Source: Octopus vulgaris
Taxonomy: Eukaryota
Length of the DNA: 64,000 bases
NCBI GenBank assembly: GCA_951406725.2
Contig: OX597817.1
Span: forward strand, 165,416,001-165,480,000
Reading direction: 5' to 3'
Shown: piece after piece, positions 21,365 through 63,943 of the stretch
Numbering within the stretch: position 1 is the stretch's first letter
Layout: each line of letters opens with the position of its first letter
Translations under genes and position numbers: made by a program
The notes under the pieces: generated by a model
Told to the model about the DNA's origin: nothing
Seen by the model: only the letters and a program-made list of their open reading frames with translations
Database searches by the model: none

Positions 21365-21483
21365 GCTTACGGCCATATCACGTTGAAAGAATCGGTTGTC
21401 GTTCGATCACCGTAGTTAAGCAACGTCGAGCCTAGTTAGTAATTAGATGGGTGACCGCTTGGGACACCTAGGCGCTGTAAGCG
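21365..21483 (+). rRNA. 5S: Orphan 5S rRNA copy, probably a pseudogene
   Basis: gcttacggccatatcacgttgaa...cgatcaccgtagttaagcaacgtcgagcctagttagta.tt.gatgggtgaccgc.tggga...gctgtaagc; ~119 nt, complementary ends, several substitutions, no T4 terminator. Confidence 0.9.
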
Positions 21484-30182: not shown

Positions 30183-30252
30183 ATGTATTTTGCATTCTGT
30201 ATCATTATGGCAATATCAGTGATGATTGATATAGCATCACCCATGCCTCAAG
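30183..30252 (+). CDS. Candidate first coding exon encoding a signal peptide (MYFAFCIIMAISVMIDIASPMPQ); exon 30176-30252
   Basis: Acceptor ttttacag at 30175, aaaATG, hydrophobic stretch, consensus donor AAG|gtaagt in phase 1; non-repetitive context. Confidence 0.55.
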
Positions 30253-30429
30253 GTAAGTAACACATTTGCACATTATCCAAATGTTCTTTTCGTTCACCTC
30301 ATGATAGTAGACCTATATTTGATTATGATAGTAGACCTGTATTTGATTATTAAATGTACAGCATATATGGTGTATAGAATATATAATCGCTTATCATATA
30401 TTAGAGAATATATGATATAAACACAAACA

Positions 30430-31700
30430 ATTTTACAATCAGCCAAATTCTGTGGTAATATCTGTGAGCCACGTTTAAACACATTCAACGAATACACCGT
30501 GTTTTTATAGCAGATATACAGCTTATAATAGAGACCTTCCATTGACATTGCTCTTGCATCTTCTCCTTTGTCCTGTTCTTGCCGCTAAGGCTATCATCTT
30601 TACGACATGTTCTCTTCAGGAGTTCCACAGAATTCAACAGTACGTTATAGCGAGCGTACTTTCGCTTGGCTGTGACTCTCGAAGACATAGAAGCAGTCAG
30701 ACACAGAGTTTTGCGTTTACAGCTCGTTAACAGACAGAAGCATCATTATTTTGAGCCGTAAACACAAAAATCATGTCACTACCAGCTTCTGCATCATTCA
30801 AAGGTATAGCCAAATGAAATCACACCCGTTTAAAACGTACTCGCTGATTCAAAGGGTTCACAGAAGCTACTTCAAGAAATGGAAATACTCGACAGTGATT
30901 TCTGCTCCAAACATGCAGCCATTCTATCCTATTATCTACCCAACTATCAATGCTGATTTTCATATCATGAATGTGATGGAAATCACGATAAATACTGGTT
31001 TCTCTCAAGACATCCAGTATATCTTAAATCTTCTAAGACAATTTGTGCAATCGTAACGACTGGAGACTCACTTTGCTGTGTCGCTTCAATCAGCGCAAGC
31101 CAGTTTTGCAGAGAGTAACTTCTTTATCACAGTTCACAACCGCCATATATAACCCACACTCAGTACTGGGAATAATGAAATAGTCTTTAAAAGAACCATC
31201 TTCGTAACAGTAGCTTATTTTGTCATTGATATCAACCAATAATTAATTTTCTATGAAAACATTGATAATGAAATAAGATTTGGTGGACGAGAGATCCACC
31301 AAAATTTGGATCTTATGCTATAAAATAAAACACGTAAACCTTGGGAAAGTTTATTGAAAGTAAATTTCTACTCATATCATTAAAATGTTCAATTATGTCT
31401 TGCATCGCTATAACTCCACCATTACCTTTCCAATTCTTGCACGCGATAATTTGCTCATTCTTTTCTCTTAAAACTGTTACTTTCTGGAATTCCTTCTCTT
31501 CTCATCTCTCTTAGAGATATCAATCCGTAAAAATGCTTATTTAGTTACCCCTGCTGGTAACTTATTATGTATTGGTTTGAGAAAATAAATTAGATTTCTA
31601 AATTGACATAATTTTCATTTACATTTTGAAATATTGATTTCTACACGTTAGACTTCTAATGTAACGCTCTGTCGTCCATGCATTTGTCTGATAAAGATCA
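30430..31700 (-). pseudogene. Possible heavily decayed piggyBac-like transposase
   Basis: Faint, ordered remnants: MSRN near 31375, and KRTCRK...KVS..C..C...CLNVAH resembling the Cys-rich C-terminus; many stops. Confidence 0.3.
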
Positions 31701-31954
31701 ACGTAAATAAAAGGATAGAGTTCATACAAGCAAAGGTTTTGAATTAAGATAAAGGAAACAGATTTAAAAGAATCGTGTGCGCGTGTGCGTGTGAGCGCGT
31801 GTGTATGTATGGTGTGTAACTGGCAGAATTGTTAAATTACCGGCCAAAATGCTTAGCGACATTTCGTCCGTCTGAGTTCAAATTCCGCCGAGATCGACTT
31901 TGCCTTTCATCCTTTCGGGGTCGATAAAATAAATATCTGTTGTTGTAATCGACT

Positions 31955-32017
<63 letters not shown>

Positions 32018-32372
32018 AAAAAATAAACTAGTTAGGCAAACGTGTCTACAAAGTATAGTTACAAAGAGAAACAAAGATGGAAGTTCATCTGTGTACCATA
32101 AAGCTACGAGATTGAATTAAACTTAGGACTTAGACAAAAGCAGATAGGAAATGAATACCATGTACATGTACTTTGATTTTCAAACACCATACACTGGCAT
32201 TAAAGCGTCTATGTTATTTTCTAATTTTGGCAGACTTAACTGTTACGGATTGTTATAAAGAATGCAAAAACACTTTTCATCGTGAAGGTGAGGAGCAAAT
32301 GAAAGAAACAAAGTTTTATTCTTTGAAGTGCCTTGTTTATTGCCGAACTTTTTAAACAGCTGTAATTTATTA

Positions 32373-32413
<41 letters not shown>

Positions 32414-32564
32414 GGGTCAAGACCCCAAAGATCACTTCTGGATTGCCTATTCTCTATAAACTTTATGTATTTTAAGTGAAATATATAATTAAAATGAAAT
32501 TCTTACTAGTCAGTTATAAATTTGTTCCGATTTCAATTACTTTATTCAAACAGAAATTTCAGAA

Positions 32565-33100
<536 letters not shown>

Positions 33101-33107
<7 letters not shown>

Positions 33108-33477
33108 TAAATTAGAGATAAAACCACTATTAGGCAAATCATACAATGAAAAACTTAAGCCAATACATAAGATTAATTAATTTAAATTATTTTAAATATA
33201 TATCAAAATTATAAAAAAAAGATAATTAGTATAACACTACGATCGTTTCATGGCTGTCCAATTCTTAAAATTTCGAGTTACAGTCATTCTTCAGGTGATT
33301 AAAATATTTAACTTAGCGAGGTTTAATGTATTGGCTTAAGTTTTTCATTGTATGATTTGCCTAATAGTGGTTTTATCTCTAATTTAATATAATATAATAT
33401 TTTACTATAAAATTGGATTCAATCCTAAATCTGATTTTTTCCCTGTAAGTTTGGATTTATTCCCTAATATTTTATTA
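33101..33477. mobile_element. (TA)n-embedded element with perfect 66-bp inverted repeats enclosing a hammerhead (Penelope-like pLTR remnant)
   Basis: 33103-33168 is the exact reverse complement of 33326-33391. Confidence 0.85.
33235..33297 (-). ncRNA. Minimal type-I hammerhead ribozyme motif
   Basis: cac-CTGAAGA-atgactgt...acagccat-GAAAC-gatc-GTA-gtg; core nucleotides intact, palindromic stem III. Confidence 0.8.
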
Positions 33478-33760
33478 TATATATATATATATATAATTTG
33501 AGGATGTGTCAACCTCATGAAGGGATGGCTGGATCCAAGGAAATACTGCTTCAATATCTAGTATTTTGGAGGAATGAAATTGCCTTAAAACAATAGGTAT
33601 ATATTAAGCAAACAGTTTATGTCCAGTTAAAAGATGAAAAGAAAATGGAGATAAGGAAGTTAGCAATTATTTATTATTAAGAAATTGGTCAGATTCGCTT
33701 CTTACAGACTTTTCAATTGATACTCAATAATTTAATTACAAATTTGTACGTTAAATTTAT

Positions 33761-33890
33761 ACCAACCACATAGTTCCGGGTTCAGTCCCACTGCGTGGCA
33801 CCTTGGGCAAGTGTCTTCTTCTATAGCCTCGGGCCGACCAAAGCTTTGTGAGTGGATTTGGTGGACGGAAACTAAAAGAAGCCCGTCGTA

Positions 33891-33929
<39 letters not shown>

Positions 33930-34180
33930 GTGTGTGTATGTGTGTGTATGTGTGTGTGCGTGTTTGTTTGTGTGTCTGTGTTTGTCCCCCTAGCATTGCT
34001 TGACAACCGATGCTGGTGTGTTTATGTTCCCCGTCACTTTGCGGTTCGGCAAAAGAGATCCGATAGAATAAGTACTGGGCATACAAAGAATAAGTCCCGG
34101 GGTTCGAGTTGCTCGATTAAAGGCGGTGCTCCAGCATGGCCGCAGTCAAAATGACTGAAACAAGTAAAAAGAGAAAAGAG
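33761..34180 (+). mobile_element. SINE A, 5'-truncated
   Basis: Begins at accaaccaca. Confidence 0.95.
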
Positions 34181-34447
34181 AATATATTTAGTATAATTTC
34201 ATCAGCGAGAAAAAATGGTGTTACCCGGGGATGTTTGTATGTGGGCTTACCAATTCATTTCAACAGACAAAACGTTACGGTTTATTATTTGTATTATTAT
34301 ATACTAAAAGTGAGGGCTTTAGATGTAAATTTAATATTTACTTAATATTTACTGAGTATTAATTGAAGCAGCTGTAAATGAAGATGATTAATTTGCTGTT
34401 AATAACAATTATCAACTTCCTAATTTCCATGTTCTTCTTTTTCTTTT

Positions 34448-34850
34448 GAGTGGCTGTGTGGTAAGTAGCTTGCTAACCAACCACATGGTTCCGGGTTCAG
34501 TCCCACTGCATGGCATCTTGGGCAAGTGTCTTCTGTTATAGCCCCGGGCCGACCAATGCCCTGTGAGTGGATTTGGTAGATGGAAACTGAAAGAAGCCTG
34601 TTGTATATATGTATATTTATATGAGTATGTGTGTAAATGTTTGTGTGTCTGTGTTTGTCCCCCTAGCATTGCTTGACAACCGATGCTGGTGTGTTTATGT
34701 TCCCCGTCACTTTGCGGTTCGGCAAAAGAGACCGATAGAATAAGTACTGGGCTTACAAAGAATAAGTCCCGGGGTCGGTTTGCTCGACTAAAGGCGGTGC
34801 TCCAGCATGGCCGCAGTCAAATGACTGAAACAAGTAAAAGAGTAAAGAGT
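34448..34850 (+). mobile_element. SINE A
   Basis: Homology to A consensus; tail-to-tail with the next copy. Confidence 0.95.
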
Positions 34851-34869
34851 ATATGTTTTATATATATAC

Positions 34870-35280
34870 TTCTTTTACTCTTTTACTTGTTTCAGTCATT
34901 TGACTGTGGCCATGCTGGAGCACCGCCTTTAGTCGAGCAAATCGACCGCAGGACTTACTCTTTGTAAGCCCTGTACTTATTCGATCGGTCACTTTTGCTG
35001 AACAGCAGAATTGTGAAGCGATGTTGGGGGTGACAAACACAGACACACAAACATATACACATACATACATATATATATATACATATATACGACGAGCTTC
35101 TTTCAGTTTCCGTCTACCAAATCCACTCAGAAGGCTTTGGCCTGCCCGAGTCTATAGTAGAACGCACTTGCCCAAGGTGCCACGCAGTGGGACTGAACCC
35201 GGAACCATGTGGTTGGTATAAATTTAACGTACAAATTTGTAATTAAATTATTGAGTATCAATTGAAAAGTCCTACGCCTA
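34870..35280 (-). mobile_element. SINE A whose A-box segment is replaced by ~54 bp matching 33707-33760
   Basis: Minus strand taggcgtag-gacttttcaattg...aaatttat-accaaccacatgg. Confidence 0.85.
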
Positions 35281-35291
35281 AGTTAACTAGC

Positions 35292-35363
35292 CTCCCCGGC
35301 GGGGAATCGAACCCCGGTCTCCCGCGTGACAGGCGGGGATACTTACCACTATACTACCGAGGA
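35292..35363 (-). tRNA. trnD-GUC: tRNA-Asp(GTC)
   Basis: TCCTCGGTAGTATAGTGGTAAGTATCCCCGCCTGTCACGCGGGAGACCGGGGTTCGATTCCCCGCCGGGGAG; 72 nt, canonical cloverleaf, A and B boxes. Confidence 0.95.
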
Positions 35364-35830
35364 TTGCCTCGGTAGTATAGTGGTATACTTTAAGGAAATT
35401 ACTTCTCCCCAAATACTAGGTATTGAACCAGTATTTCCTTGGATGAAACCATCTCTTCATGAGGTTAACACAACCTCTAATCGAATATGAATGTAAATCG
35501 GTGCATTGTTCATTGTATTATGTCGTCTAGCTGGCATCTGTATCGTCATAAATGCATCATAATTTAACCAGCTGTTACAAACGTCAACCATTTCAATTCA
35601 GGTATTTCATTTATTATTATTCAGTTTTACATAAACAATAAGTCTTGACAAGATCTGAATATAAGGCAAAGTCATAAATACATGCACTGCTATATATGTA
35701 TATATACACCTAGGTCAAGAAATAGTGATGTCTAAGGATGCAAGTTAGTAATTAGTATCATCTTTGAAATAATATATACTGTGTATAAATGTATTTTGTA
35801 GTGGGTGACCAAGATTTCAATGCATATATA

Positions 35831-36303
35831 CCGTAAATCCGCGAGTATAATCTGCATTTTTTCCCCAAAATTTAAAGGTCAAAATCTCTAGTGCGTACTA
35901 TATACGGGGTTAAAAATGAAAATTATTTTCTAAGCAATGTCCGGCAATGTTTATTCAGACGCATTTTGTGATGTCGGGCGCGAAAATACCTTGAACTAAG
36001 CCTGAAGGCAATGAACTCATAAAAGAATCATCCGTAACTTGCAGTAAGCAACATTTATTAAACGTTATTACTGTTATTTGTTTATTTTCTGCAAACGAAA
36101 TGCACAAAAAAGCTACACGTTTGCATTATGTTATATATACAATAACAATAAAGGACGTTACCGTATTCATTTTTACAAACCAAGGACGTTATATAGACCT
36201 CCTTGACTCAAGTTAGAGAAGGTTTAGGTTTTTCAGAGGTACAGCCCCCTAAAAATCCCCTGCTTATTATACTCAAGGGCGGATTATACTCGAGGATTTA
36301 CGG
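35831..36303. mobile_element. Non-autonomous Tc2/pogo-type DNA transposon
   Basis: ~25-bp TIRs ccgtaaatccgcgagtataatctgc / gcggattatactcgaggatttacgg, flanked by TA on both sides. Confidence 0.9.
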
Positions 36304-36426
36304 TAGTTAGATTTCACAAATGATGAACAACGTTACGAAGATAAACATATCTTAATGAATGGAATGTCTTCATGTTGCCAGAATAGGAATGCTTAAAAAT
36401 AATATTAACTATATTGTGAGTAAGGA

Positions 36427-37304
36427 TACGGGAGTACCCAAAAGAAACCGGAATTTTACAATACTATTTTATTCACTTAGTTTATCATGTTTACACTTTT
36501 ATCGCTTTCAAAGTATTCTCCACTTTGAAGCAATGCATCGGTCTAGGAGCGTTTTCTACAATTCGAAGCAGTGCTGGAACTCTTTCGAAGTGATACGTTT
36601 TAACACCTCCGTGGTTTTTTTTTTTTTTTTTGTCTTCACTTCTTCCACATATGCAAATTCCGTAGCACCAGCTTTCGTCACCTGTGATAACCGTCGGAAA
36701 AAAAGTCCAGATCAACTTCCAACTGTTCTTTCAGTTCACGACACGCATTTAGTCGTGACTGCTTTTAATTTGTAACACAAATTTTGCTACAACGCTTTTC
36801 ATTCGCAATTCCCCGCTCAAAATTCAGTGGATACACCAGTCACATCAACAAGTTCGTCAACTCTTTGGCGACCATCCTCGAAGATCAGTTCGTGAATTTT
36901 GGTGATGTCTTCATTCGTTCGAGAGGTCGACGGTCACTCTGAAAGAGGTTGGTCTTCAAGAGAAAAGTGACCATTCTTAAAGTGTGAAAAACCACTCGTA
37001 AACTTGTGTTTTACTCATGGCAGCGTCCTTGTAAGCTGTTTGAAGCATGACATCTGTTTCAGCCCTCGTTTTTACCCAGCAGAAAACAGAATTTCGTTTC
37101 AGCCACTGCAAAAGTCAACGAACAGGAGAGAAGCACGGCAAAACAGAGACGTACCACCTAGCAAGTACGACCTCACTGGACGACGCTGGCCGGTAGACTG
37201 ATGCCCAAGGGTTGTATCAAGTAGCTTCTAGCGGTGGAAGCCTGAACTACAATGGTTTTGCCCCATAGAGAACGCTTCCGGTTCCTTTTGGGTACCCCTT
37301 CATA
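36427..37304 (-). mobile_element. Internally deleted mariner element with both TIRs
   Basis: TIRs gtacccaaaagaaaccggaa / ttccggttccttttgggtac; encodes TVITGDESWCY (first catalytic D) and GHFSLEDQP... Confidence 0.9.
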
Positions 37305-37582
37305 CAATAAATACAAACAGATAATGTTCAGATTCGAGCAGATACCTAAAATCCAATAACAAATGATGGGAAACGGAACCTGGGAAACAATACCTAGCTA
37401 TGGGCAATGTAGCGGTCGCACTAATGAACTATATTAGGTGAAAGTTTGCTTTAAGCAAGCAATATAACCCCTTCTACATTTTTTAGTTTTGGGATTTTCA
37501 GAAAAGTTTTGCGAATTTATATTCTACGCACGGGTATTTATACGATTATGCAAAAAAAGAAAATGATCTGGTGCACGATTTA

Positions 37583-37968
37583 GGAGGAAGCACTCCGTCG
37601 GTTACGGCGACGAGGGTTCCGGTTGATCCGATCAACGGAACAGCCTGCTCGTGAAATTAACGTGTAAGTGGCTGAGCACTCCACAGACACGTGTACCCTT
37701 AACGTAGTTCTCGGGGATATTCAGCGTGACACAGAGAGTGACAAGGCCGGCCCTTTGAAATACAGGTACAACAGAAACAGGGAGTAAGAGTGAGAGAAAG
37801 TTGTGGTGAAAGAGTACAGCAGGGATCACCACCATCCCCTGTCGGAGCCTCGTGAAGCTTTAGGTGTTTTCGCTCAATAAACACTCACAACGCCCGATCT
37901 GGGAATCGAAACCGCGATCCTACGACCGCGAGTCCGCTGCCCTAACTACTGGGCCATTGCGCCTCCAC
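37583..37968 (-). mobile_element. SINE C with 10-bp TSD
   Basis: gcacgattta at 37573-37582 and 37969-37978. Confidence 0.97.
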
Positions 37969-38176
37969 GCACGATTTAAGAACTACTTTGCTGTCATTTT
38001 TAGTACATTTCGTGACCACCTCATTTGTTTGTCAGACTAACGTATTGATGTTCCATTGCTGGGATTTAAGCCCCAAAATTCAGACTGTCCATTTTAAACA
38101 GTGATTTTAAAGAAGATTAGGAAAATTAAAAGAAAACAATTTTTTATGGTCGTGTGAATTTCCTTGTGTAGAATAC

Positions 38177-38321
38177 TATTAGGTTGTCCCAAAAGTTCGT
38201 AAACACTTGCGAAAATTGAATTTTTACTCGCCAAGTACTAACAAAAACAACAAAAATTATTCCTCAAAATAAAGACCATTATTTTCCAAGACTTTCTACG
38301 AACTTTTCGGACAACCTTATA
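38177..38321. mobile_element. ~145-bp mariner-type MITE
   Basis: TIRs aggttgtcccaaaagttcgta / tacgaacttttcggacaacct with TA ends. Confidence 0.85.
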
Positions 38322-38394
38322 ATTTGCAAAACTTTTCTGAAAATTACAAAAAATAAAAAAAATTATGAAGGATTAATGCAGAATTCCGCCCTAT

Positions 38395-39530
38395 ATTCTT
38401 TTCTAATCTAGGCGCAATGCAGAAAATTGTGGGGGAGGGGGCCAGTCGATTAGATCGACTCCAGTACGCAACTGGTACTTAATTTATAGAACCCGAAAGG
38501 ATGAAAGGCAAAGCCGACCTCGGCGGAATTCGAACTCAGAACGCAGCGGCAGACGAAATACTTATTTCTTTACTACCCACAAGGGGCTAAACACAGAGGG
38601 AACAAACATGGGCAGACAAACAGACTAAGTCGATTATATCGACCCCAGTGCGTAACTGGTACTTAATTTATCGACCCCGAAAGGATGAAAGGCAAAGCCG
38701 ACCTCGGCGGAATTCGAACTCAGAACGCAGCGGCAGACGAAATACCTATTTCTTTACTACCCTCAAGGGGCTAAACACAGAGAGAACAAACATGGGCAGA
38801 CAAACAGACTAAGTCGATTATATCGACCCCAGTGCGTAACTGGTACTTAATTGATCGATCCCGAAAGGATGAAAGGCAAAGACGACCTCGGCGGAATTCG
38901 AACTCAGAACGCAGCGGCAGACGAAATACCTATTTCTTTACTACCCACAAGGGGCTAAACACAGAGAGAACAAACATGGGCAGACAAACAGACTAAGTCG
39001 ATTATATCGACCCCAGTGCGTAACTGGTACTTAATTGATCGACCCCGAAAGGATGAAAGGCAAAGCCGACCTCGGCGGAATTCGAACTCAGAACGCAGCG
39101 GCAGACGAAATACCTATTTCTTTACTACCCACAAGGGGCTAAACACAGAGAGAACAAACATGGGCAGACAAACAGACTAAGTCGATTATATCGACCCCAG
39201 TGCGTAACTGGTACTTAATTGATCGACCCCGAAAGGATGAAAGGCAAAGCCGACCTCGGCGGAATTCGAACTCAGAACGCAGCGGCAGACGAAATACCTA
39301 TTTCTTTACTACCCACAAGGGGCTAAACACAGAGAGAACAAACATGGGCAGACAAACAGACTAAGTCGATTATATCGAGCCCAGTGCGTAACTGGTACTT
39401 AATTGATCGATCCCGAAAGGATGAAAGGCAAAGTCGTCCTCGGCGGAATTTGAACTCAGAACGTAACTGCAGACGAAATACGACTACGCATTTCGCCCGG
39501 CGTGCTAACGTTTCTGGCAGCTCGCCGCCT
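38395..39530 (-). repeat. SINE B with a 184-bp internal unit repeated head-to-tail (6 cores)
   Basis: gaactcagaacg at 38532, 38716, 38900, 39084, 39268 and 39452; single head at ~39480-39530. Confidence 0.97.
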
Positions 39531-40170
39531 TCCGCTCTTTATTAACATTAATAAGCGATTAATGGGCAGAGACATCAACAACAAAAGTAGGACTTTTCGC
39601 TTCGTATATAGAATATGTGTGTTAATAAATTATCTACCAAAATGTTTTTAAAAATCATCTCCTGCGAAGGTACTGAATTGCGTTGTGCAAAAAAAGCAGT
39701 CGAGCCTAGAGAAAGGGAGGGAACTCACATGGCGTCTCTTTTTTTTTTTTATTTATCTATTTGACTCAGTAAATCAAATATTTTAAGAAGCAGAACGCAA
39801 CCCAATTTTGATAACGAGCAAAATTATGCTATTGCCACAGCAGTTGTTTCTAAAAATGTAAAAATAAAAACCTAAAGCTTGCTGATATTATTTAGGACAC
39901 TTAGTTTTATTTTTATACGTAACCATTAGCAGAATGCTGTGCTTAAATTAATCTACAGGGCAAGTTTTGAGAACTGATAACGAATAGCTTGAATCAATAA
40001 AGCAGAAATATTGCTAGAGAACACAATTTCTAATAAATACTTGAATATTTCAAATGTATCTCATAACCGATTTTTTCTTTACTGCGACACGCACGCACAC
40101 ACACACACACATATGATACGCATACACATTCACACAGACGAAACACTCACATGTGCGTGTGACAATATCT

Positions 40171-40201
<31 letters not shown>

Positions 40202-40205
40202 TATA

Positions 40206-40236
<31 letters not shown>

Positions 40237-40239
<3 letters not shown>

Positions 40240-40620
40240 CGCAGGAGTGGCTGTGTGGTAGTAGCTTGCTTACCAACCACATGGTTCTGGGTTCAGTCCC
40301 ACTGCGTGGCATCTTGGGTAAGTGTCTTCTGCTATAGCCTCGGGCCGACCAATGCCTAGTGAGTGGATTTGGTAGACGGAAACTGAAAGAAGCCTGTCGT
40401 ATATATGTATATATATGTGTGTATGTGTGTATGTGTTGCTTGACAACCGATGTCGGTGTGTTTACGTCCCCGTAACTTAGCGGTTCGGCAAAAGAGATCC
40501 GATAGAATAAGTACTGGGCTTACAAAGAATAAGTCTCGAGGTTGATTTGCTCGACTAAAGGCGGTGCTCCAGCATGGCCGCAGTCAAATGACTGAAACAA
40601 GTAAAAGAGTAAAAGAGTAA
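40237..40620 (+). mobile_element. SINE A, full length
   Basis: Homology to A consensus. Confidence 0.95.
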
Positions 40621-40634
40621 ATATATATTTATAC

Positions 40635-40683
<49 letters not shown>

Positions 40684-40771
40684 CACATAAGTATGTATGT
40701 ATGTATGGTTGGTGTGTTAATTAAAAAGGCATTAAAATGATTCTCCTTAGACACAATATATATATATATAC

Positions 40772-40809
<38 letters not shown>

Positions 40810-41169
40810 TAATATAAATATATAGGTATATGCATATATACATACATACATATATGTACATACCTACTTATATATGTATATATACATGCATATATGGGTA
40901 CAGGACATCAAAAAAACGTTGACTAGAATAGAGAAACGAAAACAAAAAAAAAAACATAGAAAACGAACTTTTTTTTCGAACAACGGAAAAAACAGAGAAA
41001 CGTGACATGCAACATAAAGAATATTCTCCTTCATCAGTTGTCTACGTATGTATATGTATAGAAATTCAGGGTGAGTACTTGATAATTGTAAGCACCTGTA
41101 TATACCGTTTGGTGGTGTAGGTGGTGGAGTAAATTAATCAAAAAAAAAAAACATGATGCCAAGGATTCA

Positions 41170-41247
41170 GCGGTACATATGTTTCGGGCCTTTATTAGAC
41201 GGATTTATAACAATGTATAATGTGTGTCTATGGCCTTCTTCAGCCGC
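41170..41247 (-). ncRNA. Minimal type-I hammerhead ribozyme motif
   Basis: gcgg-CTGAAGA-aggccatagac...gtctaataaaggccc-GAAAC-atat-GTA-ccgc; intact core, palindromic stem III, A:C at the base of stem II. Confidence 0.8.
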
Positions 41248-41664
41248 GCACAACTACTACCTCAAGGACATGTATTACATCAAGAATTCTACGTTGGGGA
41301 TGCAAATCCTCTCATTCGCGTACGACATAATGCGGCAACAGCATAAATATGAAGCGTCCATCTCGTCCTTCTCTCAATGTAGAATGAGGAAGTTTGGATG
41401 TTGAGGTAATATAAATAAATGAATAAATAAATATATACATATATAAAATACAGACAGACGTGAAGGAACCTGGTAATAAGAGCAAATAGGGATAAAGATG
41501 GAGGGGCGAGAATTCAGGACGAAGGATAAAAAAATATATAAAATGTGTAAGTATAGAAAAGATATAGAGATATAAAAAATATAAAAATATAAATGAATAT
41601 AAAGGTATAAAGTTATAAAAAAATAAATTAAAAAAAATATGTATATGTATTTTTTTTTTTTAAA

Positions 41665-41984
41665 GACTCCGCCGGTTACGACGACGAGGGTCCCAGCTGA
41701 TACGATCAACGGAACAGCTTGCTCGTGAAATTAACGTGCAAATGGCTGAGCATTCCACAGACACGTGTACCCTTAACGTAGTTCTCGGGGATAATCAGCG
41801 TGACACAGAGAGTGACAAGGCTGACCCTTTGAAATACAAGTACAACTCATTTTTGCCAGCTGAGTGGACTGGAGCAACGTGAAATAAAGTGTCTTGCTCA
41901 AGGACACAACGCGTCGCCGGGAATCGAACTCACAACCTTACGATCATGAGCCGAATGCCCTAACCACTAAGCCACGCGCCCTCA
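41665..41984 (-). mobile_element. Chimeric SINE: D-type head and core, C-type tail
   Basis: Core matches 50490-50550; tail matches 25380-25560. Confidence 0.9.
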
Positions 41985-42249
41985 TATGTATATGTATAAA
42001 TATATATATATATACATATAAATAAATAAATAGATATATATACACATAAATAAATACACACACATACAAAACGTTTCGGGGGTAAATTTGACGATATTTT
42101 GTCACCCTTTTTGGAGAAGCGTTTGATATATTTATGGGTAAACATTCAAAACAGTTAACGGCATTGGGACAATAAGATTACATTTGTACCTGTGAAAACC
42201 TTGGCTGACACTCAGGCCTGGAACCTATCTGAATATTGTAAAATAATTC

Positions 42250-42640
42250 TCTCTTTTCACTGTTGCCATGCTGCAGCATCACGTTTAAACGAACAAATCG
42301 ACCTCAGGACTTGTTCTCTTTGTAAGCCTAGTACTTATTCTATCGCTCGCTTTTGTCGAACCGCTAAGTTACGGGGACGTAAACACACCAGCATCGGTTG
42401 TCAAGCGATGTTGAGGGGACAAACACAAGCATACAAACATATACACACACATACATACATAAATACATACATACGACGGGATTCTTTCAGTTTCCGTCTA
42501 CCAAATCCACTCACAAGGCTTTGGTCGGCCCCAGGCTATAGTAAAAGACACTTGCCCAAGGTACCACGCAGTGGAACTGAACCCAGAACCATGTGGTTGG
42601 TAAACAAGCTACTTGCCACACAGCTACTCCTATGCCTATA
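42250..42640 (-). mobile_element. SINE A
   Basis: Homology to A consensus. Confidence 0.9.
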
Positions 42641-42849
42641 TCTCTGCATCATCATGATTCCCGCCGTGTATCAAAAGGCCGACATCATGGCTGCAGTTCA
42701 ATTATTATGTTTTGCCTGTCATTCTACTCCTTATAACTCCTTTTCCTTCAACCCGTAATTTTTATTCTCTCACTAACTCTCTAGCTGTTACCGCCCTCTC
42801 TTTAATATATTCCTCTCTACGGACAACGAAAAACTAGCTAACAATTCGT

Positions 42850-43260
42850 TAGCTGTCAAAAACGTTAGCAAGCCGGGCGAAATGCTTAGTGGTATTTCGT
42901 CTGCCGTTACGTTCTGAGTTGAAATTCCGCCAAGGTCGACTTTGCCTTTCATCCTTTCGGGGTCGATAAATTAAGTACCAGTTACGCACTGGGGTCGATA
43001 TAATCGACTTAACCCATTTGTCTGTCCTTGTTTGTCCTCTCTGTGTTTAGCCCTTTGTGGGTAGTAAAGAAATAGGTATTTCGTCTGCCGCTACGTTCTG
43101 AGTTCAAATTCCGCCAAGGTCGACTTTGCCTTTCATCCTTTCGGGGTCGATAAATTAAGTACCAGTTACGCACTGGGGTCGATATAATCGACTTAATCCA
43201 TTTGTCTGTCCTTGTTTGTCCTCTCTGTGTTTAGCCCTTTGTGGGTAGTAAAGAAATAGG
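42850..43260 (+). mobile_element. SINE B with two tandem units
   Basis: Two near-identical ~184-bp units. Confidence 0.95.
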
Positions 43261-44031
43261 TTAGATCGTTCGCTATCAATATATATTATGTTGGTGCTGA
43301 CTCCAAAACGAAGAAGTCTTCCGCTTACAACGTATGGTTCTTTCTTTTCTTTAGAATGTATATTATTTATAAGTTACGAAAATGTTGACCGTAACTCAAG
43401 GTAACAAAGACATGAATACAATGAAGATACATTAAAATTTCTTTTTAGCTCGTCAGCTGTTATACATGCTAGGTACTTTTAAGTACTTCTATATCACATG
43501 TCTGTCAGTTATTAACTCACTCAAAGACAACCTAACCAACGTTTATCATATTACTTATTTCGAACACATGTTCACACATCAGATGATTTGTGCTCAAAAA
43601 TGCTTACTGCAAAGACAACGTAGCTATTAAATCCATAGTTTTGTTGAAAACGTGCTATTCTACTACCAGATAGCGCATCTTTCAAGTTTCATCCATCTGT
43701 TCCTCGCATATATACATATACGACAGGCTTCTTTCAGTTTCCGTCTACCAAATCCACTCATAAGGCTTTGGTCATGCCGAGACTATAAAAGGAGACACTT
43801 TCACAAAGTGCTACGCAGTGCAACTAAACCCGGAACCTTGTGGTTGGGAAGCAAGCTTCTTACCACACAGCCACACCTGTACCTACGATGAACACGAGTT
43901 TATAATCATTTGTTCCAAAGTATGTTTCACCAGTGCGGTTGTTTGAAACTGTACAAAGGATTTTTCTGTGAGCTTAGCCACAGCGGCTCATCACGGAACA
44001 CTTGAACTGCATAACAGGAGTTAATATAATA

Positions 44032-44319
44032 TGATTTTGATGATTTTGATTTTTACAGTTTCAGCTCATGAGCTGTGGCCATGCTGGGGCACCGCCATTT
44101 GGTTTGCTACATGATTTTACCTCACAAGTGCTTTTTAGCAACTGCCATTTGGTGCATGAGAGAGTTCGATGCAGCTGCCCTCATCTGCACCTCCTGCCGT
44201 GAAGTTGGTTCATCCGGGACACCTGACAGGAAGAGATCCAGTCCTACTTTAAAGACATCCGCATCTACACCATGCAGGTCCCTCAGGTTCTTCGGGAGGA
44301 TATTGAAGAGCTGTGGGCC
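44032..44319 (-). mobile_element. CR1/L2-group LINE 3' end with a tail resembling SINE A
   Basis: Encodes GPQLFNILPKNLRDLHGVDADVFKVGLDLFLSGVPDEPTSRQEVQMRAAASNSLMHQ; 3' UTR ggcggtgccccagcatggccacagctcatgagctgaaact plus (aaaatc)n. Confidence 0.8.
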
Positions 44320-44791
44320 TTATATATATATAGAAATTTCGAGAAAACAATAGAATAAATAAAAAAAACAGTAAAGTTTCGAATGTTCTGCAAAAAAGAC
44401 TTAGTGAGAGTGGAATGGAAACGAAGAAATTTAGTAGTTAAAAGTATTTCCTTATGTAATAGGGAAATATTTGATGACTTTTAAACAATTTGCTGATTCA
44501 TTTTTACATGTTACAAACATATTTTTGTCAGATAACTTAGTTTTAAATTATCAGCCAGAAAATAAGCCCGTCATATGTATATTTTAAACAATTTGTGCTG
44601 ATTCACATAAACGAAAATTCCAATAGTCACCATGTATATTATGTTTTCAACAAGTTTCCTATTTTCTTGTACTTTGCAACTAAAATCACTAGCGTTCAAC
44701 AACAAACTTGCGTAATAAAAGCCATCAAGTTTTTTTCAGTTACAATGCACGTAAAATCGCTGTTCGAAGTTTTTCTATTTTATCATTATAA

Positions 44792-45175
44792 CTAGCAGTA
44801 TCGCCCGGCGTTGCTCAGGTTTGTAAGGGAAATAACTATAAAGCATTTTTAGAGAGTTATAGCCAAAAAATAGCAAAAAAATGGAAAAAAATGATGGTAA
44901 ATTTTTTTTGAGAGTGAAAAAAGGTGGAGTTGCGTCCCCTAGACAGTTTGCGGTTTGATTTCTGATTCTCAACCCCATGTCGAATTTATCGATTTTTTTT
45001 CAGAACTGGGGGAACTTTTCAAAATTTTCGCTACGTTAGTTTTGAATTATGACATTGGGCTATGTGTGTGTCAAGTTTCATCAGAATCGGTTGAAAGCCG
45101 TGGTCAGGGTGAGGGTACAAGCAAACAGACACCCAGAAACACGCACAGACAAACTGCCGTTTATATAGAGAGAGA
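44792..45175 (-). mobile_element. Non-autonomous Helitron-like element
   Basis: Minus strand A|TC...gcaacgccgggcgatactgCTAG|T: 5' TC, 3' CTAG with GC-rich subterminus, inserted between A and T, no TSD. Confidence 0.75.
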
Positions 45176-45229
45176 TGTAGCAAGCATAATTTTTAAAATG
45201 AGGTAGTTTTTGAGAAGCATTGTGACGTA

Positions 45230-45940
45230 TAACTTTAAAGAATATAGTTGTGTAAATCCAGAACAATTTGAGAAGGTACAAATACAAATATACAATGAAA
45301 AGAAAAAGAACATAGTTGGAGTTTTACCTTGTATTTCTGTATATTGGGGTGAAGCCCCACTTCTTCAGGGCATTCGGAAAAGCGGTGCTCGGAAAAAGTT
45401 TGTTACTCAGATGTTTGTCTCCCACGCCCCACCCTCACACATCTGCTGAACAAACTTTTTTCCAACCACCGCTTTTCCTAATGTCCTGAAGAAAGCCTTT
45501 ACACCGGAAAATAGAAAAACGAGGTAAAACTGCAACGCTGTTCTGTTTTCTTTTCATTTTGTAGTTTACATTGTGACCACCGTGACCGACCAGGCTATCA
45601 GATGTTGCTACACATCGCTAGTCACAATGCGCTTCGCATTGATTTAGCCTTCAAATGGCGCCACCCCGCTGGCTAAGCGAGCAGGCCAACAGAAGAAAGA
45701 GTGAGAGAAAGTTGTGACGAAAGAATACAGCAGGGATCGCCACCACCCCTGCCGGAGCATCGTGGAGCTTTAGATGTTTTTGCTCAATAAACACTCACAG
45801 CGCCCGGTCTGGGAATCGAAACCGCGATCCTATGACCGCAAGTCCGCTGCCCTAACCACTGGGCCATTGCGCCTCCTCATAGTTTACATTATACCTTCAC
45901 GAATTGTTCCGGATTTACACAACTACATTCCTCATAGTTT
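45230..45940. repeat. Diverged ~180-bp inverted repeat interrupted by a SINE
   Basis: ~45230-45414 versus 45439-45572 plus 45891-45940; each arm contains cCTGAAGA. Confidence 0.85.
45573..45879 (-). mobile_element. SINE with C-type head and an alternative RTE-like tail; 11-bp TSD
   Basis: TSD tagtttacatt at 45562-45572 and 45880-45890; tail resembles 1613-1675. Confidence 0.9.
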
Positions 45941-46322
45941 TTGAAAATAGTAATCCCTACCTTAACAATACCAAAATATTGGAAATTAAGTCTTTCAAAA
46001 ATAAACCTTCCCAAAATGAAGAAACAAGTGTAATGTTATCTTCTGCGATCACTATAATGACTGGACAAGTTGGGGGCAATAAAGATCGGAGATGCTTTGA
46101 TCCATGCAAAATCTGCAGAAGCTACTCGGAGGTTTTGCAAGTTTATCTTCTAAATTCATCGCAATGTTGTCTCGAGGTTACAGTCGTTTCGCCTTTTAGT
46201 CTGAACACTTTACCTGAGTCGGGCAGCGAAAGTGTCTCCTACTATAGCCTCGGTCTGACCAAACCCTTATGAGTGGATTTGGTAGACGGAAACTGAAAGA
46301 AGCCCGTCGTATATGTATATAG

Positions 46323-46535
46323 GCGAGGTCTGATCAATAAGTATCCGGACTGTTGCTATAGTAACGAAGCTAAAGCACGCAAAGTAAAGCTGCTTGGAAA
46401 AGAATGACCTTGAGCTCTGTTGTGGATGCACACTAAATTTTAATGTTCTAGCTCACTTCCGCTGTTTACAGCAGTGCTTGGAAAGAACGTGTGTAGCGTG
46501 TGATCGTCGCATTGACCATGACAGAGAAAGTTGTC
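46323..46535 (+). mobile_element. Mariner-like 5' end fragment
   Basis: cgaggtctgatcaataagtatccggact TIR-like start leading to ATG ACA GAG AAA GTT; no partner TIR seen. Confidence 0.45.
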
Positions 46536-46905
46536 ATGGTGATACCTGAATTTGTCTTTGCTCATAGGAAGATTCCACTTACAGTCTCTTATCAAGAATA
46601 ACCATTTCAAGGTAGTTTCAACCGCCATTGCTATCTTCTTAATGACATTTTTCAGTTGTTTCAATTTCTGCTAGAAATAGCGCACCGATCAATCTGGAAG
46701 GTCGCAGTTACAGACTCCAATAGTGAATTATGCTGAGAAAAATCACATCATTTTAGTACATTAAACAAAATGTTTGTGTGTATTTTATCTTAAAAGCATA
46801 AGTCAACAATTGGTATTAGTATTACTATACGTACTGGCATTTTTAACAGATGAAAGCAATTCTCGCATTACACTGAACAAATGAACATTCTCATTCTTAT
46901 AGCTT

Positions 46906-47373
46906 ATCATCATCATTGTTCGACCGTGGTCGAGACAATGGAATTTACCATGCTACGCCAGACTTCACGGTCCATCATGGCATTACGGAGGTCCTGTTGC
47001 TGGATGCCTGTATCCCTGGAGATTACATCAGGGTAGGAGAGTGTGCGCCCTCTGGTATTGCGAGTAGATGGCTTCCAGAGGAGAAGAGTAGAAATTACTT
47101 CTTTTTCAGCTCTACAACAATGTCCAGCCAACTGGACTCTCCTACCTTTCACAAGAGATGACACAGGTGGTAGTTTCCCATATATTTGCATTTTGGTTGG
47201 ATGGCGCTTCCACGAGAGATTTTGAACTCTCATAAGGAGGCGAGTGTAGGTTCCATCCAACCGCCTCTCAAGCTTCTTTGATAGCGTCCAGGTTTCTGAG
47301 CCATATAGTAGAATTGGTTCGACTGTGGCTTTGAAGATTTCAAGTTTGAAGTTTGAAGATTTCAAGTTTGAAG
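46906..47373 (-). mobile_element. 5'-truncated RTE-clade LINE (ORF C-terminus)
   Basis: Open frame KLEIFKATVEPILLYGSETWTLSKKLERRLDG...RRVQLAGHCCR...MMDREVWR; (TGA)n tail; ~22-bp tandem duplication at the 5' junction. Confidence 0.9.
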
Positions 47374-47614
47374 TCTATACTGCAAGGCCTCACATACATA
47401 CACTGTCCAATCTTAGGTGATTTGGCTCTATATTTGTCTTTGCCAGCCCAACCACTCGTTCTCACCCATCCAAGTTCTGACTTTAACAACAGGGCTAAAA
47501 TGTTGCATTTTTACCGTCCGGCCATATTTTGTGGACCGCACCTAATCTCCTTTATGGTTAGTGGCCGGCTGGTTCAGGACAAAACGTATAGATGATTCTT
47601 CCCTCAACTGCTGA

Positions 47615-48010
47615 GTGGAGGCGCAATGGCCCAGTGGTTAGGGCAGCGGACTCGCGGTCATAGGATCGCGGTTTCGATTCCCAGACCGGGCGTTGTGAGT
47701 GTTTATTGAGCGAAAACACCTAAAAAGCTCCACGAGGCTCCGGCAGGGGATGGTGGTGATCCCTGCTGTACTCTTTCACCACAACTTTCTCTCACTCTTA
47801 CTTCCTGTTTCTGTTGTACCTGTATTTCAAGGGGCCGGCCTTGTCACTCTCTGTGTCACGCTGAATATCCCCGAGAACTACGTTAAGGGTACACGTGTCT
47901 GTGGAGTGCTCAGCCACTTACACGTTAATTTCACGAGCAGGCTGTTCCGTTGATTCGGATCAACCGGAACCCTCATCGTCGTAACCGACGGAGTGCTTCC
48001 ATCCATCCAT
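47615..48010 (+). mobile_element. SINE C, full length
   Basis: Near-identical to the other C copies; (atcc)n tail. Confidence 0.95.
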
Positions 48011-48385
48011 ATATTGCTGTTTTCCTTTTGCGGGTTACACCTTTTCTTACATCTTTAAGATCCACTTATTTCAAAATTAGAACCATAGGCTTGTAGCTTG
48101 TTATCATTATAACGTCTTGCTTTTGCTTTAGCGAGAACTTTTAAGGCAGACTAGAACGTCGTGCCAGGATGTAAATGCCCACAAGGCACCTCTATGATAT
48201 ATGCAGTTAGAGAGATCAACTACTGAAACATGAGACTGAAAGTAGAATAGGATTTAGGTGATTAGTCCGAAATGATCAGGAAGTATATGATACAGATGCT
48301 TGTATCATCAACTTAAAGCACTGAAAATATTAAAATATATGGTGACCAATGGAGAAGGTTTGTGTAAGCCAGAATCATTGAAGAC

Positions 48386-48769
48386 ATTATTTACATTATT
48401 TACATTCGATAGATATTTGTCCTCATCTTGTTTGTTGTTAACACAACGATTCAGCTGATATAACCCCCAGCCTTCTTCAGGTGTCTTGGGGAAACTTCGA
48501 ACCTGGGTTCTAATTTCTAAGGTATTTTTCTATGTTATTATTTTTTTTTTAATAATTATTATTGTTATTATTATTATTGTTGTTGTTATTATTATTATTG
48601 GTGGTGGGAGTGGTAGTGTTGTTGTTAGTGTTCAGGTCACTGCTTGGAATCGAACTCGGAATCTTGAGGTTAGTAGCCCGCGCTCTTAACCACTACGCCA
48701 TATGCAAATGTCGAATTTAAATAATGTAAATAATGTACATAATTCCTCATCTCTTAAATATAGAACTGT
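48386..48769 (-). mobile_element. TSD-bounded composite: tRNA-like head, (AAT)n-rich spacer and hammerhead motif, with inverted end
   Basis: 12-bp TSD atcattgaagac (48374-48385, 48770-48781); A box tggcgtagtgg and B box gagttcgattcc in ~48633-48702; gacac-CTGAAGA-aggctg..cagct-GAATC-GTT-gtgtt at 48440-48485. Confidence 0.85.
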
Positions 48770-49076
48770 ATCATTGAAGACGTTGCAGACACTGTAAGAG
48801 AAAGAAAATTTAGATAAAGGATGAAAACATTCAATTATGATATAATATTTACTAGCAGTAAGTACCCAGCGGTGCCTGGCTTCATTAAAAACTAAATCAA
48901 ATTACACCGGTGACTACAATGTATTTATAATTTCCGATTCTCTTCAGAAATAGACTTCGTCTCGAATTTAGCGGGAGAGATGGAATGTAGAGTGCTGTAC
49001 TAAACACTGAATTTTAATCGTGGATGACTGGATTATGTCTGTGTGTATGAGTGTGTGTGTGGATGTGTGTGTGTGT

Positions 49077-49113
<37 letters not shown>

Positions 49114-49212
49114 TGAGTGTGCGTGTATGTGTCCGTGTGCGCGTGCGTGCGTGTTTATGTATGTGTGTGCGTGTTTGTGTGTCTATCTATTATCTATCTA
49201 TCTATCTGTCTG

Positions 49213-49290
<78 letters not shown>

Positions 49291-50405
49291 TAATCCAAAC
49301 GGGAAAACAGAAAAAACAACAACACGTGGAACAATTACAGTATTATTATTATTAGGCGCTCAGGAAAATGGAATATACACACATTCATTCACACACACAC
49401 ACACACGCGCATGCACACATTCACACACATGTTAATATATATATATATATATATATATATAGTATCGCGTTAAATTTCTACTAACCTCTTGAAGTATTTC
49501 AAATTTTCAGATTCTTTTCAGATTTTCACAAATATAGCTGATAATGAACATCACATCAATTTTCCTTCTTTTTTATGAAAATAATACAAAGTTGCATCTA
49601 GAATATAATTTTCGCCAGTCGGAAGCCTCCATTACCGGCTTAGCAGAAGTCGAACGCGTGTGTGTGTGTCTACGGCAACCACACAAATACAAAGAAGATG
49701 AAACTTTTACGTGCTCGCTCGACCTGCTAGAAATAGACTCCCATCTTGCTTAAAGTGATTCATAACGTCTAGAAAACAAAACGGACGGAACGTTGTGCTA
49801 TAGCACCATATATTTAATCGCTTGAGATAAACCCAGGCGTTTTCCATTTGTTGAGCGCTATTAATAATATCTAAATGAAAGTCAATCTCCGTTAAGACTG
49901 ACTTTATCGAACACACGACGCTTAAATCACTTGCTGCTGGGCAGCGGAGATCGACATTAAATGTAATTTCTCTTTTCTTATAAAATTGTAAACAAAGTTT
50001 AAAGAAAAACATGGTGGCAATGATGGAGAAAGAATTGGGGGAAAACGCTGTAACTGTACGAAATATAGTGTCGATGATGATGATGATGATGGTTTTAATG
50101 GTATTCTTTGTTCATCACCGAACTTTGCAGGAAGATTTAGCTGCTACTCGAGAGATTACGTAAAGGTGTCATCTTCTTCGTGTCGGTGAGACATGTGCGA
50201 CTTCCACTCTGTCGGCAATGGATACTTCAGATTGGCTATAATTGCACAATTTCAACTCCATCTAACAATTCTTTTAGTTAAATTCTAGAAAAGGAAATTA
50301 ATGCGAACTTTGCATCAGCATGCAAAACTGTTAGGTTGTCAAGAAAGCTCTTGCGGTTTTTAACCTTTAAATTCAGATGCACATATCTCAGCTCATATCT
50401 CAGAT

Positions 50406-50758: not shown

Positions 50759-51456
50759 ACATATCTCAGCTCAAGCAAAACTTTATTAATCAAAATAAAC
50801 ACCATCAGAATCAATACACTTTTGCCAACGCGAAACAAGTTTATTTATGTGGACCATATTTACAAGACCTATGCATATCCAGTTCAACATTACTGATAGT
50901 TGAGAAATCATACAATTGAAAAGAGAACTTTATGAAAATTTCCAGTTGATACTCGAAGGTTTTTGTATTATACCAAAGAGTAAACATGGTGTAACCATTT
51001 TTTTCCATACTATACTAAAAAGTATCCCAGCATTTCTTCTCCAGTTTTTAAAGTCAGTTGAGTGGTATTTTAGAGGAATTGAACTATTTGCGTTTGACGA
51101 TTAAAAATAACTGAATAAAGCTTTATTTCTTCTTCGTTGGCTTGGTAACATGAAATGTGGTGAATGTGGTGTATAAAACCAGGAGAAACAATGACGATAT
51201 TTCGTCATAGCTGAAAGTAAGCAGGAGGCACTCGCGTCAAACTAAGGAATTGAAGATATATGAGCTCACTTATTGAAATCAACGTAGTTAAGACACATAA
51301 ATATATCAGATATTATATTGTGCGATTTGATCTATAAATCACACATCTAACAGTCAACACGTGTTCTATACATCTATGTATTACTCGATAATAAAACTAG
51401 CTTAAAAGCTTCTTTACATTATTACCGTTCTTATAGAAAGGTACTTTAAGTTGCCT

Positions 51457-52040
51457 TGGCAGAAACGTTAGCACGCCGGGCGAAATGCCTAGCAGTATTT
51501 CGTCTGTCGCTACGTTCTGAGTTCAAATTCCGCCGAGGTCGACTTTACCTTTCATCCTTTCGGGGTCGATTAAATAAGTACCGGATTCGCACTGGGGTCG
51601 ATATAATCAACTTAATCCGTTTTTCTGTCCTTGTTTGTCTTCTCTGTGTTTAGCCCCTTGTGGGTTGTAAAGAAATAGGTATTTCGTCTGCCGTTACGTT
51701 CTGAGTTCAAATTCCGCCGAGGTCGACTTTACCTTTCATCCTTTCGGGTCGATTAAATAAGTACCGATACGCACTGGGGTCGATATAATCAACTTAATCC
51801 GTTTTTCTGTCCTTGTTTGTCTTCTCTGTGTTTAGCCCCTTGTGGGTTGTAAAGAAATAGGTATTTCGTCTGCCGTTACGTTCTGAGTTCAAATTCCGCC
51901 GAGGTCGACTTAGCTTTTCATTCTCTCGGCGTCGATTAAATAAGTACCAGTTACGCACAGGGGTCAATATAATCGACTTAATTCCTTTGTCTGTCCTTGT
52001 TTGTCCCCTCTATGTTCAGCCCCTTGTGAGCAATAAAGTA
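51457..52040 (+). mobile_element. SINE B with three tandem units
   Basis: Three central domains at ~182-184-bp spacing. Confidence 0.95.
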
Positions 52041-62024: not shown

Positions 62025-62604
62025 TCTTTTCTACTCTAAGCATAAGGCCTGAAATTGTGAGGGAAGGGGCAACTCGATTAGATCGACTCCAGTACGCAAC
62101 TGGTACTTAATTTATCGACCCCGAAATGATGAAATGCTAAGTCGACCTCGGCGGAATTTGAAATCTGAACGTAAAGACAGACGAAACACCTATTTCTTTA
62201 CTACCCACAAGGGGCTAAACACAGGGGGAACAAACAAGGACAGACAAACGGATTAAGTCGATTACATCGACCCAGTGCGTAACTGGTACTTATTTAAATC
62301 GATCCCGAAAGGATGAAAGGCAAAGTCGACCTCGGTGGAATTTGAAATCTGAACGTAAAGACAGACGAAATACCTATTTCTTTATTACCCACAAGGGGCT
62401 AAACATAGAGACAAACATGGACAGACATAGGTATTAAGTCGATTATATCGACCCCAGTGCTTAACTGGTACTTAATTTATCGACCTCGAAAGGATGAAAG
62501 GCAAAGTCGACCTCGGCGGAATTTGAACTCAGAACGTTACGGCAGACGAAATACCGCTAAGCATTTCGCCCGACGTTCTAACGATTCTGCCAGCTCGCCG
62601 CCTT
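62025..62604 (-). mobile_element. SINE B with three tandem cores and a terminal alternative tail
   Basis: Same architecture as 38395-39530. Confidence 0.93.
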
Positions 62605-63943
62605 CGGTAAATTCATATTACTGATGTATAAACTGCTCGCTGTAAAATTTCTTTAAGAACATATAACATACTGTTGTGTGTGTTTATTGAGCGAAAAAAA
62701 CACCTAAAAGCTCCACGAGGCTCCGGCAGGAGGTGGTGATCCCTGCTGTACTCTTTCACCACTCTAAAGGTGGTGCTCTAGCATGGCCGCAGTCAAATGA
62801 CTGAAACAAGTACCAAAAAAAAAAAAAAAAAAAAAATACTCCAATGATTCAAATATTCAGCTCCATTATATTAGGTTTCTTAATACGTCGTAGCGGATTA
62901 GATTTTCGGGCAACGTTATATTAGACCGGCAGTAATTAACAAGACTCATGAGTAAGTTAGTCCCTAGGGTGTTTTAACTTGGTAACGGAAATCACATGAT
63001 GTATGTCTTAAAATGTTACTGAATCCAGTGTGTGTAAAATTTGTAGGTTTCGGTATATGTTTAACGGAACTTTAAGGTTGTCATGAGTTAAAATACGTAA
63101 ATAATTGCTTCCTTGTGGCATCAATAATTAAACTCATTGAGGGCGGTTGGTTGTGGATATGAAAACTCGTTAGAGCGTCGGAAAAAATGTCATGTGATGC
63201 TTCTTACTTACGGTCTCTCACGTTCTGAGTTCAAATCGTACCGAATTCAACTTTAGTTTCCATGGTTTATTTATGTATTTTATTTATTTTTTTTTACTTG
63301 TTTCAGTCTTTGGATTGCTGCCATGCTTGGGGGAACTACCTTGAAGGTTTTCTTTCTATTTTTTTTTTTTTTTTTTTTTTGAGCAAATCGAAGCCAGTAC
63401 TTACTTTATTTTCAGCCTGCTATTTTAATTTTTTTAATTTTTTTTTTAATTTTGCTGAAGTGCAAAACTTACGGGAACATAAACAAACCAATACCGGGTG
63501 TCAGGTGGACAAATATTTACACTCACGCATACACGCACACACACACGCACACACACACATGCGGTTGGCAACGAGAATTGTCTGCCATTGGCACCGGAAC
63601 TGCCAGATCACGTGATTTCGACGTACTCTGATTTCGACGTTGATCACTGAGTAAATTGATTACATCAACTTACTACCTCCCCCGAAATTGCTGGCTTTGT
63701 GCTAAAATCTGAGACCAGCATTTACTGCGGATTTCATCTGAAGGGAAAGGAGTCGATCAATTATAAATTGCTACTCGTATCCCTAAACAATACGAAAACT
63801 GATTTGCAGCCGAAACATGTGTAGAAATTAAAGGAGATCCACAAATGGTATTTATTCTTACTGCTTGTAATCCCATTTCAGGATAAGTTAAATTCAATTC
63901 TCCAACGAATAGTCAGCTTCTACTATGCTTCTACTTCTCATTA

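Follow-up and report, generated by a model that had tools for sequence, protein, structure and literature searches.

The window, that is, the whole 64,000-nt stretch of Octopus vulgaris DNA analysed here, carries at 48386-48769 a compact repeat unit in which an A/B-box head, an (AAT)n-rich tract and a hammerhead-like motif follow one another on the minus strand, with an inverted copy of the terminal segment beside them and a TSD around the whole (Table 1). The initial annotation had read all of these parts from the sequence and they are indeed present where it placed them, including the 12-bp TSD, which is exact and matches at 14 of 15 positions when extended. The body of the unit terminates at a short 3′ end (body ~150) and its hammerhead, read on the minus strand from 48485 to 48440, runs GACAC-CTGAAGA-A-GGCTG-loop-CAGCT-GAAT-CG-TT/GTGTT, the slash marking the predicted cut. 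The core of this copy is mutated (A15.1>U and a G-U at 10.1-11.1), position 15.1 being A in 105 of 108 copies, and the start-codon position at 48514-48512 reads ATT, not ATG. The fold of the window monomer is unremarkable (z -0.5 to -0.9), and Rfam scans gave neither a hammerhead nor a tRNA match at the unit among the matches listed.

Table 1. Coordinates of the repeat units, their parts and other features in the window
Feature	Position	Strand	Remarks
TSD, left copy	48374..48385	n/a	12 bp, exact
TSD, right copy	48770..48781	n/a	
Inverted short arm	48711..48769	+	body positions 130-175, including the ~25-nt PLE "tail"
tRNA-like head of pLTR	48631..48705	-	
A box	48700-48690	-	TGGCGTAGTGG
B box	48655-48647	-	GTTCGATTC
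(AAT/AAC/CAC)n spacer	48536..48630	-	length varies between copies
pLTR body	48386..48535	-	5′ UTR end plus initial codons of the PLE ORF
Type I minimal hammerhead motif	48440..48485	-	predicted cut between 48445 and 48444
Second copy, sense arm	32661..32955	-	head begins 2 nt upstream of tRNA position 1
Second copy, inverted arm with tail	32954..33050	+	body ~89/91-174
5S rRNA match	21365-21483	+	86.1 bits, above Rfam gathering score
tRNA-Asp(GTC)	35292-35363	-	
~184-bp tandem units	~38400-39530		another abundant repeat family
Pieces related to the ~184-bp repeat	42860-43260, 51450-52040, 62030-62770		
Assembly gap, 100 N	3543-3642		from N count and self-alignment break

The second copy aligns with the window unit at 73% (E 9e-68) and is embedded in (TA)n sequence, where a TSD is not discernible. 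Its sense arm has the (AAT)n tract and, as had been described, keeps GAAA while the CUGA box is deleted; by eye, most of the A box is gone too. Its inverted arm begins 1-3 nt upstream of the predicted cut, hence near the cleavage site as claimed.

Both copies belong to a large family. A head 20-mer has 4,372 and a tail 20-mer 11,770 exact matches genome-wide (reversed controls 0), and scaling the latter by per-site conservation gives an estimate of about 33,000-50,000 arms. The 34-nt intact core has 2,774 exact matches genome-wide against none for its reversed control, thus the hammerhead motif is not a product of chance. Among 108 copies that were not chosen on the ribozyme, 57 keep every core position and 34 of the copies keep the stems as well; the commonest letters form a complete core, which indicates that the core of the source was intact and bears out both the intact ancestral ribozyme and the complete consensus core that the initial annotation had anticipated. 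In the genomic copies, core columns are conserved exactly as non-core ones are (0.94 vs 0.94), pointing to neutral decay. Median divergence across 77 bodies is 5.1%, equivalent to ~15 My should the octopod rate given in PMC13282606 hold here. A second hammerhead, suspected by eye in the tail, was dropped as it is without CUGA.

These parts had been interpreted as a candidate SINE-retrozyme, that is, a separate non-autonomous element transcribed by Pol III, self-cleaving, circularising and moved in trans by an unrelated PLE. The unit is instead the pLTR of a Penelope/Poseidon-type PLE, flanked by the 3′ end of the PLE ORF upstream and by its 5′ end downstream. A search selected on the ORF gave 28 non-self loci; five stop before the ORF end, and the 23 that reach it all run on into the head (21 of them independent). 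No headless ORF end was found among these 23 copies, nor in five further ones (one a repeat), and exact 20-mer counts fall from that of the head to 1,013 at the ORF end, ~60 nt upstream. In several loci selected on the hammerhead, the end of a GIY-YIG ORF was likewise seen just upstream of the head, and the ORF-head junction is spanned by contigs from runs that bear the labels of two other organisms. At the other side, a search with the 5′ part of the ORF gave 28 loci, 10 of which have the body immediately upstream of the ORF, and 27/29 and 24/30 head-selected loci have the body downstream of the head, confirming that head and hammerhead are consistently linked. The complete pLTR-ORF-pLTR layout, where head, (AAT)n, hammerhead and tail precede the ORF and a further head follows it, was found in three of ten extended regions (L181-L183). 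Since the hammerhead and the tail make up the first ~52 codons of the ORF, and the pLTR is joined to the ORF on both sides, the unit does not constitute a separate family. The tail, then, can be matched to a PLE pLTR, and the idea of mobilisation by a PLE holds, yet the mobiliser is the unit's own element and not a partner acting on a separate non-autonomous one.

Even so, short units greatly outnumber ORF-bearing ones, and at one place there is a tandem array of headless hammerhead units, both of which would suit a separate SINE-retrozyme. This array (L002, G000:C30:17290166-17293290) has six hammerhead-bearing units 188-197 bp apart with one tRNA-like head in front, and is a retrozyme-like array born from the pLTR. 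A reading as a non-LTR retrozyme spreading by tandem arrays fails, L002/L012 (one place) being the one multi-unit array among the first 90 loci; apart from a few partial tandems, the commonest form there is an inverted pair. A tRNA-derived SINE, in the sense of a distinct non-coding family with a LINE-type 3′ tail, fails as well: the unit encodes the N-terminus of its autonomous partner. The tRNA-derived head with A and B boxes is what a SINE has, whilst the partial-tandem pLTRs, the inverted 5′-truncated copy, the one-ended tail and, at the sequence level only, the hammerhead motif in the pLTR are those of EN+ PLEs. Judging from their 5′ ends, the short units may yet have acted like SINEs.

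The PLE itself can be followed through its copies. One natural copy (L166) has an ATG in the body from which an open frame extends through hammerhead and tail into the RT. Across 60 copies (826 columns), no stop codon is common to more than 27% of them and, there being no majority stop, the source ORF was open and encoded a protein of ~830 aa. No intact ORF was found among 116 matches, the longest open frames being 569-572 aa; pairwise identity between ORF copies is 87% at the median and 94% at most. RT and C..C..H..H motifs are visible in the translations, so that a single ORF holds an RT followed at the C-terminus by GIY-YIG/CCHH. RVT_1 reached E 2.7e-6 on the PLE protein, below the curated cut-off, Pfam GIY-YIG gave no score on the pLTR-linked protein, and a PDB search with it returned remote RTs only. 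The RT-EN linker is without the CxxxxCxxC Zn-finger that a Neptune-type control from the same genome has and that is present in Neptune/Nematis (PMC8557442); such a linker fits the Penelope/Poseidon type, the clade placement being drawn from motifs. The hammerhead-coded peptide recurs in relatives of ~55% identity, its pattern being matched in 3 of 39 long relatives. The N-termini of four related PLE proteins (P0003, P0124, P0149, P0120) spell the hammerhead core in frame (PDDG...KR), making the ribozyme visible at the protein level. Another relative, P0006 (53% identical), falls in a cluster with proteins that take their names from the barnacle Amphibalanus amphitrite.

The Pfam GIY-YIG matches obtained belong to other, Neptune-type PLE families, which are unlinked to the unit and served as controls. 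One such family (L251-L255) has many open frames of 781 aa and is apparently young; no CTGA-type hammerhead with the family pattern was found within 1.5 kb of its endonuclease.

The head is tRNA-like in both its boxes and its overall sequence. A sister head is colinear with the genome's tRNA-Arg(TCG) at 48/71 positions (z 8.3), the best of 36 distinct tRNA sequences, with the isotype being tentative as ~8 isotypes were sampled; the Rfam tRNA model gave no score on the head. The A box is intact in 39 and the B box in 43 of 62 heads. For Pol III, a T4 run is a terminator. Sense-strand runs of at least four T occur at only 0.39/kb in 54 copies of the element (87 kb aligned; 2.65 kb element), none of them shared by more than three copies, although T3 runs reach 6.7/kb in the same copies. 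In comparison, runs of at least four T occur at 1.0-5.9/kb in six PLE ORFs of the same genome while the median is 4.0/kb over 80 related loci, or 2.3/kb in the 31 with similar T content, and the Poisson P for zero T4 runs is 0.002-0.007. The scarcity concerns canonical and non-canonical terminators alike and extends throughout the element, non-coding pLTR included. Synonymous codon shuffles gave P0 values of 0.12-0.55 in four open segments, none significant singly, and a fifth segment has three T4 runs but overlaps an inverted flank. T4-free controls without a head do exist (5/80 loci; 2/41 among stretches of at least 1,400 nt), and two of them, L374 and L351, have T-runs elsewhere. None of the 80 related metagenome loci showed an A and B box pair downstream of the match, many of them having little or no downstream sequence, and an Rfam scan of seven T4-poor control loci gave no matches. 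Taken as a whole, the scarcity of T4 runs is suggestive of Pol III transcription. Three unstranded RNA-seq runs showed equal depth on both strands, roughly tracking copy number, with no pile-up of beginnings or ends at the PLE head start or at the cut site.

Insertion anatomy provides a second view of the templates. The 12-bp TSD of the window unit is typical: TSDs measure 10-13 bp, and of the 85 insertions in which both ends can be recognised, 44 have a duplication of at least 10 nt, versus 6% of random pairings. The arms stand head-to-head, one with a long and one with a short 3′ end; these ends cluster at body 144-150 (short) and 172-175 (long), and 61 two-armed insertions comprise 53 long/short, eight short/short and no long/long pairs. 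The 5′ ends were classified in 123 arms anchored on the tail and taken from the first 17 Mb of C1 (97 of 100 listed places). Thirty-five end in the body, 20 inside the head, 36 at the head boundary and six in the ORF, the other 26 being without a head within 700 nt and hence without a class. Forty-two arms thus extend as far as the head start: the stops of 35 lie in the interval from +9 to -10, with a cluster at -2 to -7, one lies at -26, and the remaining six arms pass the head start and run 118-1,127 nt into the ORF. A weak excess of body-internal 5′ ends surrounds the cut at 91/92, with 8/35 at positions 89-95 (P 0.005; 0.04 without two internal deletions), which counts in favour of a self-cleaving retrozyme. 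Yet the majority of arms extend across this site; cleavage was thus not the main route of spread and the hammerhead seems mostly uncut in templates, while a few per cent of arms may derive from cut RNA. Moreover, the 3′ ends lie at the two internal start sites of the PLE and not at the hammerhead. With the identical unit being the pLTR of an ORF-bearing element, coding its N-terminus, and with no headless ORF ends in the copies counted above, the separate SINE-retrozyme is largely refuted and we consider it very improbable.

A more serious alternative concerns the head. It could be a passenger SINE fragment within the pLTR of a PLE transcribed by Pol II, the 5′ ends arising from fold-back or annealing at a palindrome or from RNA processing at the tRNA-like fold. 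A 12-bp palindrome, native to the ORF-head junction, does lie at the head boundary and many copies have short fold-backs there. The 36 head-boundary arms have a symmetric partner in 11 cases, an asymmetric one in 14 and none in 11; as only 11/36 are symmetric, annealing at the palindrome explains a minority at most, with fold-back still a possible source. The T4-free control loci and the absence of Pol III transcript ends from the three unstranded RNA-seq runs also agree with a passenger head. On the other hand, 25 of the 36 stops are asymmetric or partnerless, and the stops concentrate at -2 to -7, which is where a pre-tRNA-like start would fall. The source has its two boxes intact and spaced as in a tRNA, and terminators of both kinds are scarce element-wide, even in the non-coding pLTR. 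A passenger head is, on these grounds, an unlikely account of the family.

The best explanation, and a fairly probable one, is a PLE pLTR with a tRNA-like head that provided Pol III-made templates, on which cDNA synthesis stopped at the RNA 5′ end. Initiation by Pol III would lie ~2-7 nt upstream of the first tRNA position, whether the pLTR is solo, 3′ or 5′. The PLE protein would nick both DNA strands 10-13 bp apart, and reverse transcription would be primed from two internal sites close to each other (body ~144-150 and ~175), in the manner demonstrated in vitro with the anole element (PMC11167929). Upon halting at the RNA 5′ end, the cDNA would give head-to-tail units of ~280-400 bp joined head-to-head, the hammerhead being mostly uncut in these templates. 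The short templates are likely Pol III products, and the full-length RNA is possibly one as well. The latter step is less certain: the whole 2.7-kb element, being without T4 runs, could also be a Pol III transcript, or the protein could come from Pol II read-through and the templates from Pol III. In its strongest form, the proposal is an autonomous retrotransposon whose entire 2.7-kb RNA, with an ~830-codon ORF purged of T4 terminators, would be a Pol III product driven by the tRNA-derived promoter that its terminal repeat contains; we offer this tentatively, as a doubtful extension. If true, one locus would be a SINE and its own partner at once. Translation of an uncapped Pol III RNA, which the Pol III model leaves unexplained, is thereby raised as a testable question.

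Apart from its head, the element closely resembles known PLEs; the hammerhead, the inverted arms, the one-sided tail (PMC8557442) and the 10-13-bp TSDs are all known PLE traits. Like the Poseidon PLE of Anolis carolinensis (PAc; PMC11167929), it has a pLTR-ORF-pLTR layout, an RT with a C-terminal GIY-YIG and a hammerhead that overlaps the ORF start; in PAc too, uncut RNA is the main substrate, two adjacent internal RT start sites define the "tail" and both strands are nicked and extended. The strict long/short pairing of arms gives in-genome support for such priming from both nicked strands. It differs from PAc in that the ATG lies upstream of the whole core, with the cut ~70 nt into the ORF as against 26 nt, and the available text of PMC11167929 mentions no tRNA-like or Pol III head. 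The octopus ribozyme is of the PLE minimal type throughout, with an extra nucleotide between A9 and G10.1, a G10.1-C11.1 pair, a palindromic 15.2-16.2 and a 5-bp helix I, its sole difference being the upstream head; low activity and action as a dimer are expected of this type (PMC4209133).

What is unusual is that the pLTR of an element coding for protein contains a head with A and B boxes that resembles tRNA-Arg; the ribozyme and the insertion traits were already known. Retroelement Pol III promoters are linked with short, non-coding parasites. Named octopus SINEs include OK, OR1, OR2 and "Twin". A small-RNA-derived Pol III promoter in the terminal repeat, probably from a SINE insertion, is also found in TRIMp3 elements (Cassandra, Helenus, Ajax), which unlike the octopus PLE are non-coding LTR elements of at most 1.3 kb, and a paper of 2024 argues that the autonomous partners of these elements have to rely on Pol II, with sharing of the repeat unlikely (PMC10886601). 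That argument would meet a counter-example in a coding PLE that has a tRNA-like head, 5′ stops at this head and no T4 run common to its copies. Schistosome Sm-alpha similarly joins a Pol III promoter to a hammerhead in a short repeat (reviewed in PMC6765202), and retrozymes were proposed to be pLTR derivatives (PMC7229834; bioRxiv 10.64898/2026.07.22.740005). Sm-alpha and non-LTR retrozymes are described in these three sources as non-coding, tandem and processed by cleavage, whereas the octopus units are mostly dispersed inverted pairs that span the cut site and are identical to the pLTR of a coding element; they offer a direct path from a PLE to SINE-like or Sm-alpha-like units. No tRNA-derived head in a PLE pLTR was found in the open full-text literature, including the available text of PMC13282606, PMC7229834, PMC3531059, PMC4758252 and bioRxiv 10.64898/2026.07.22.740005, though a Repbase or Dfam entry may exist. 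In annotation, the estimated 30,000-50,000 PLE-end arms are liable to be labelled as SINEs.

Finally, at L007 and L086, upstream of the body, and probably similarly at L078, another retroelement has its 3′ end directly against the (AAT)n spacer. This retroelement, at L007 and L086, has a restriction-like endonuclease C-terminus and presumably resembles R4/Dong. Such insertions at the spacer may account for some of the headless arms.
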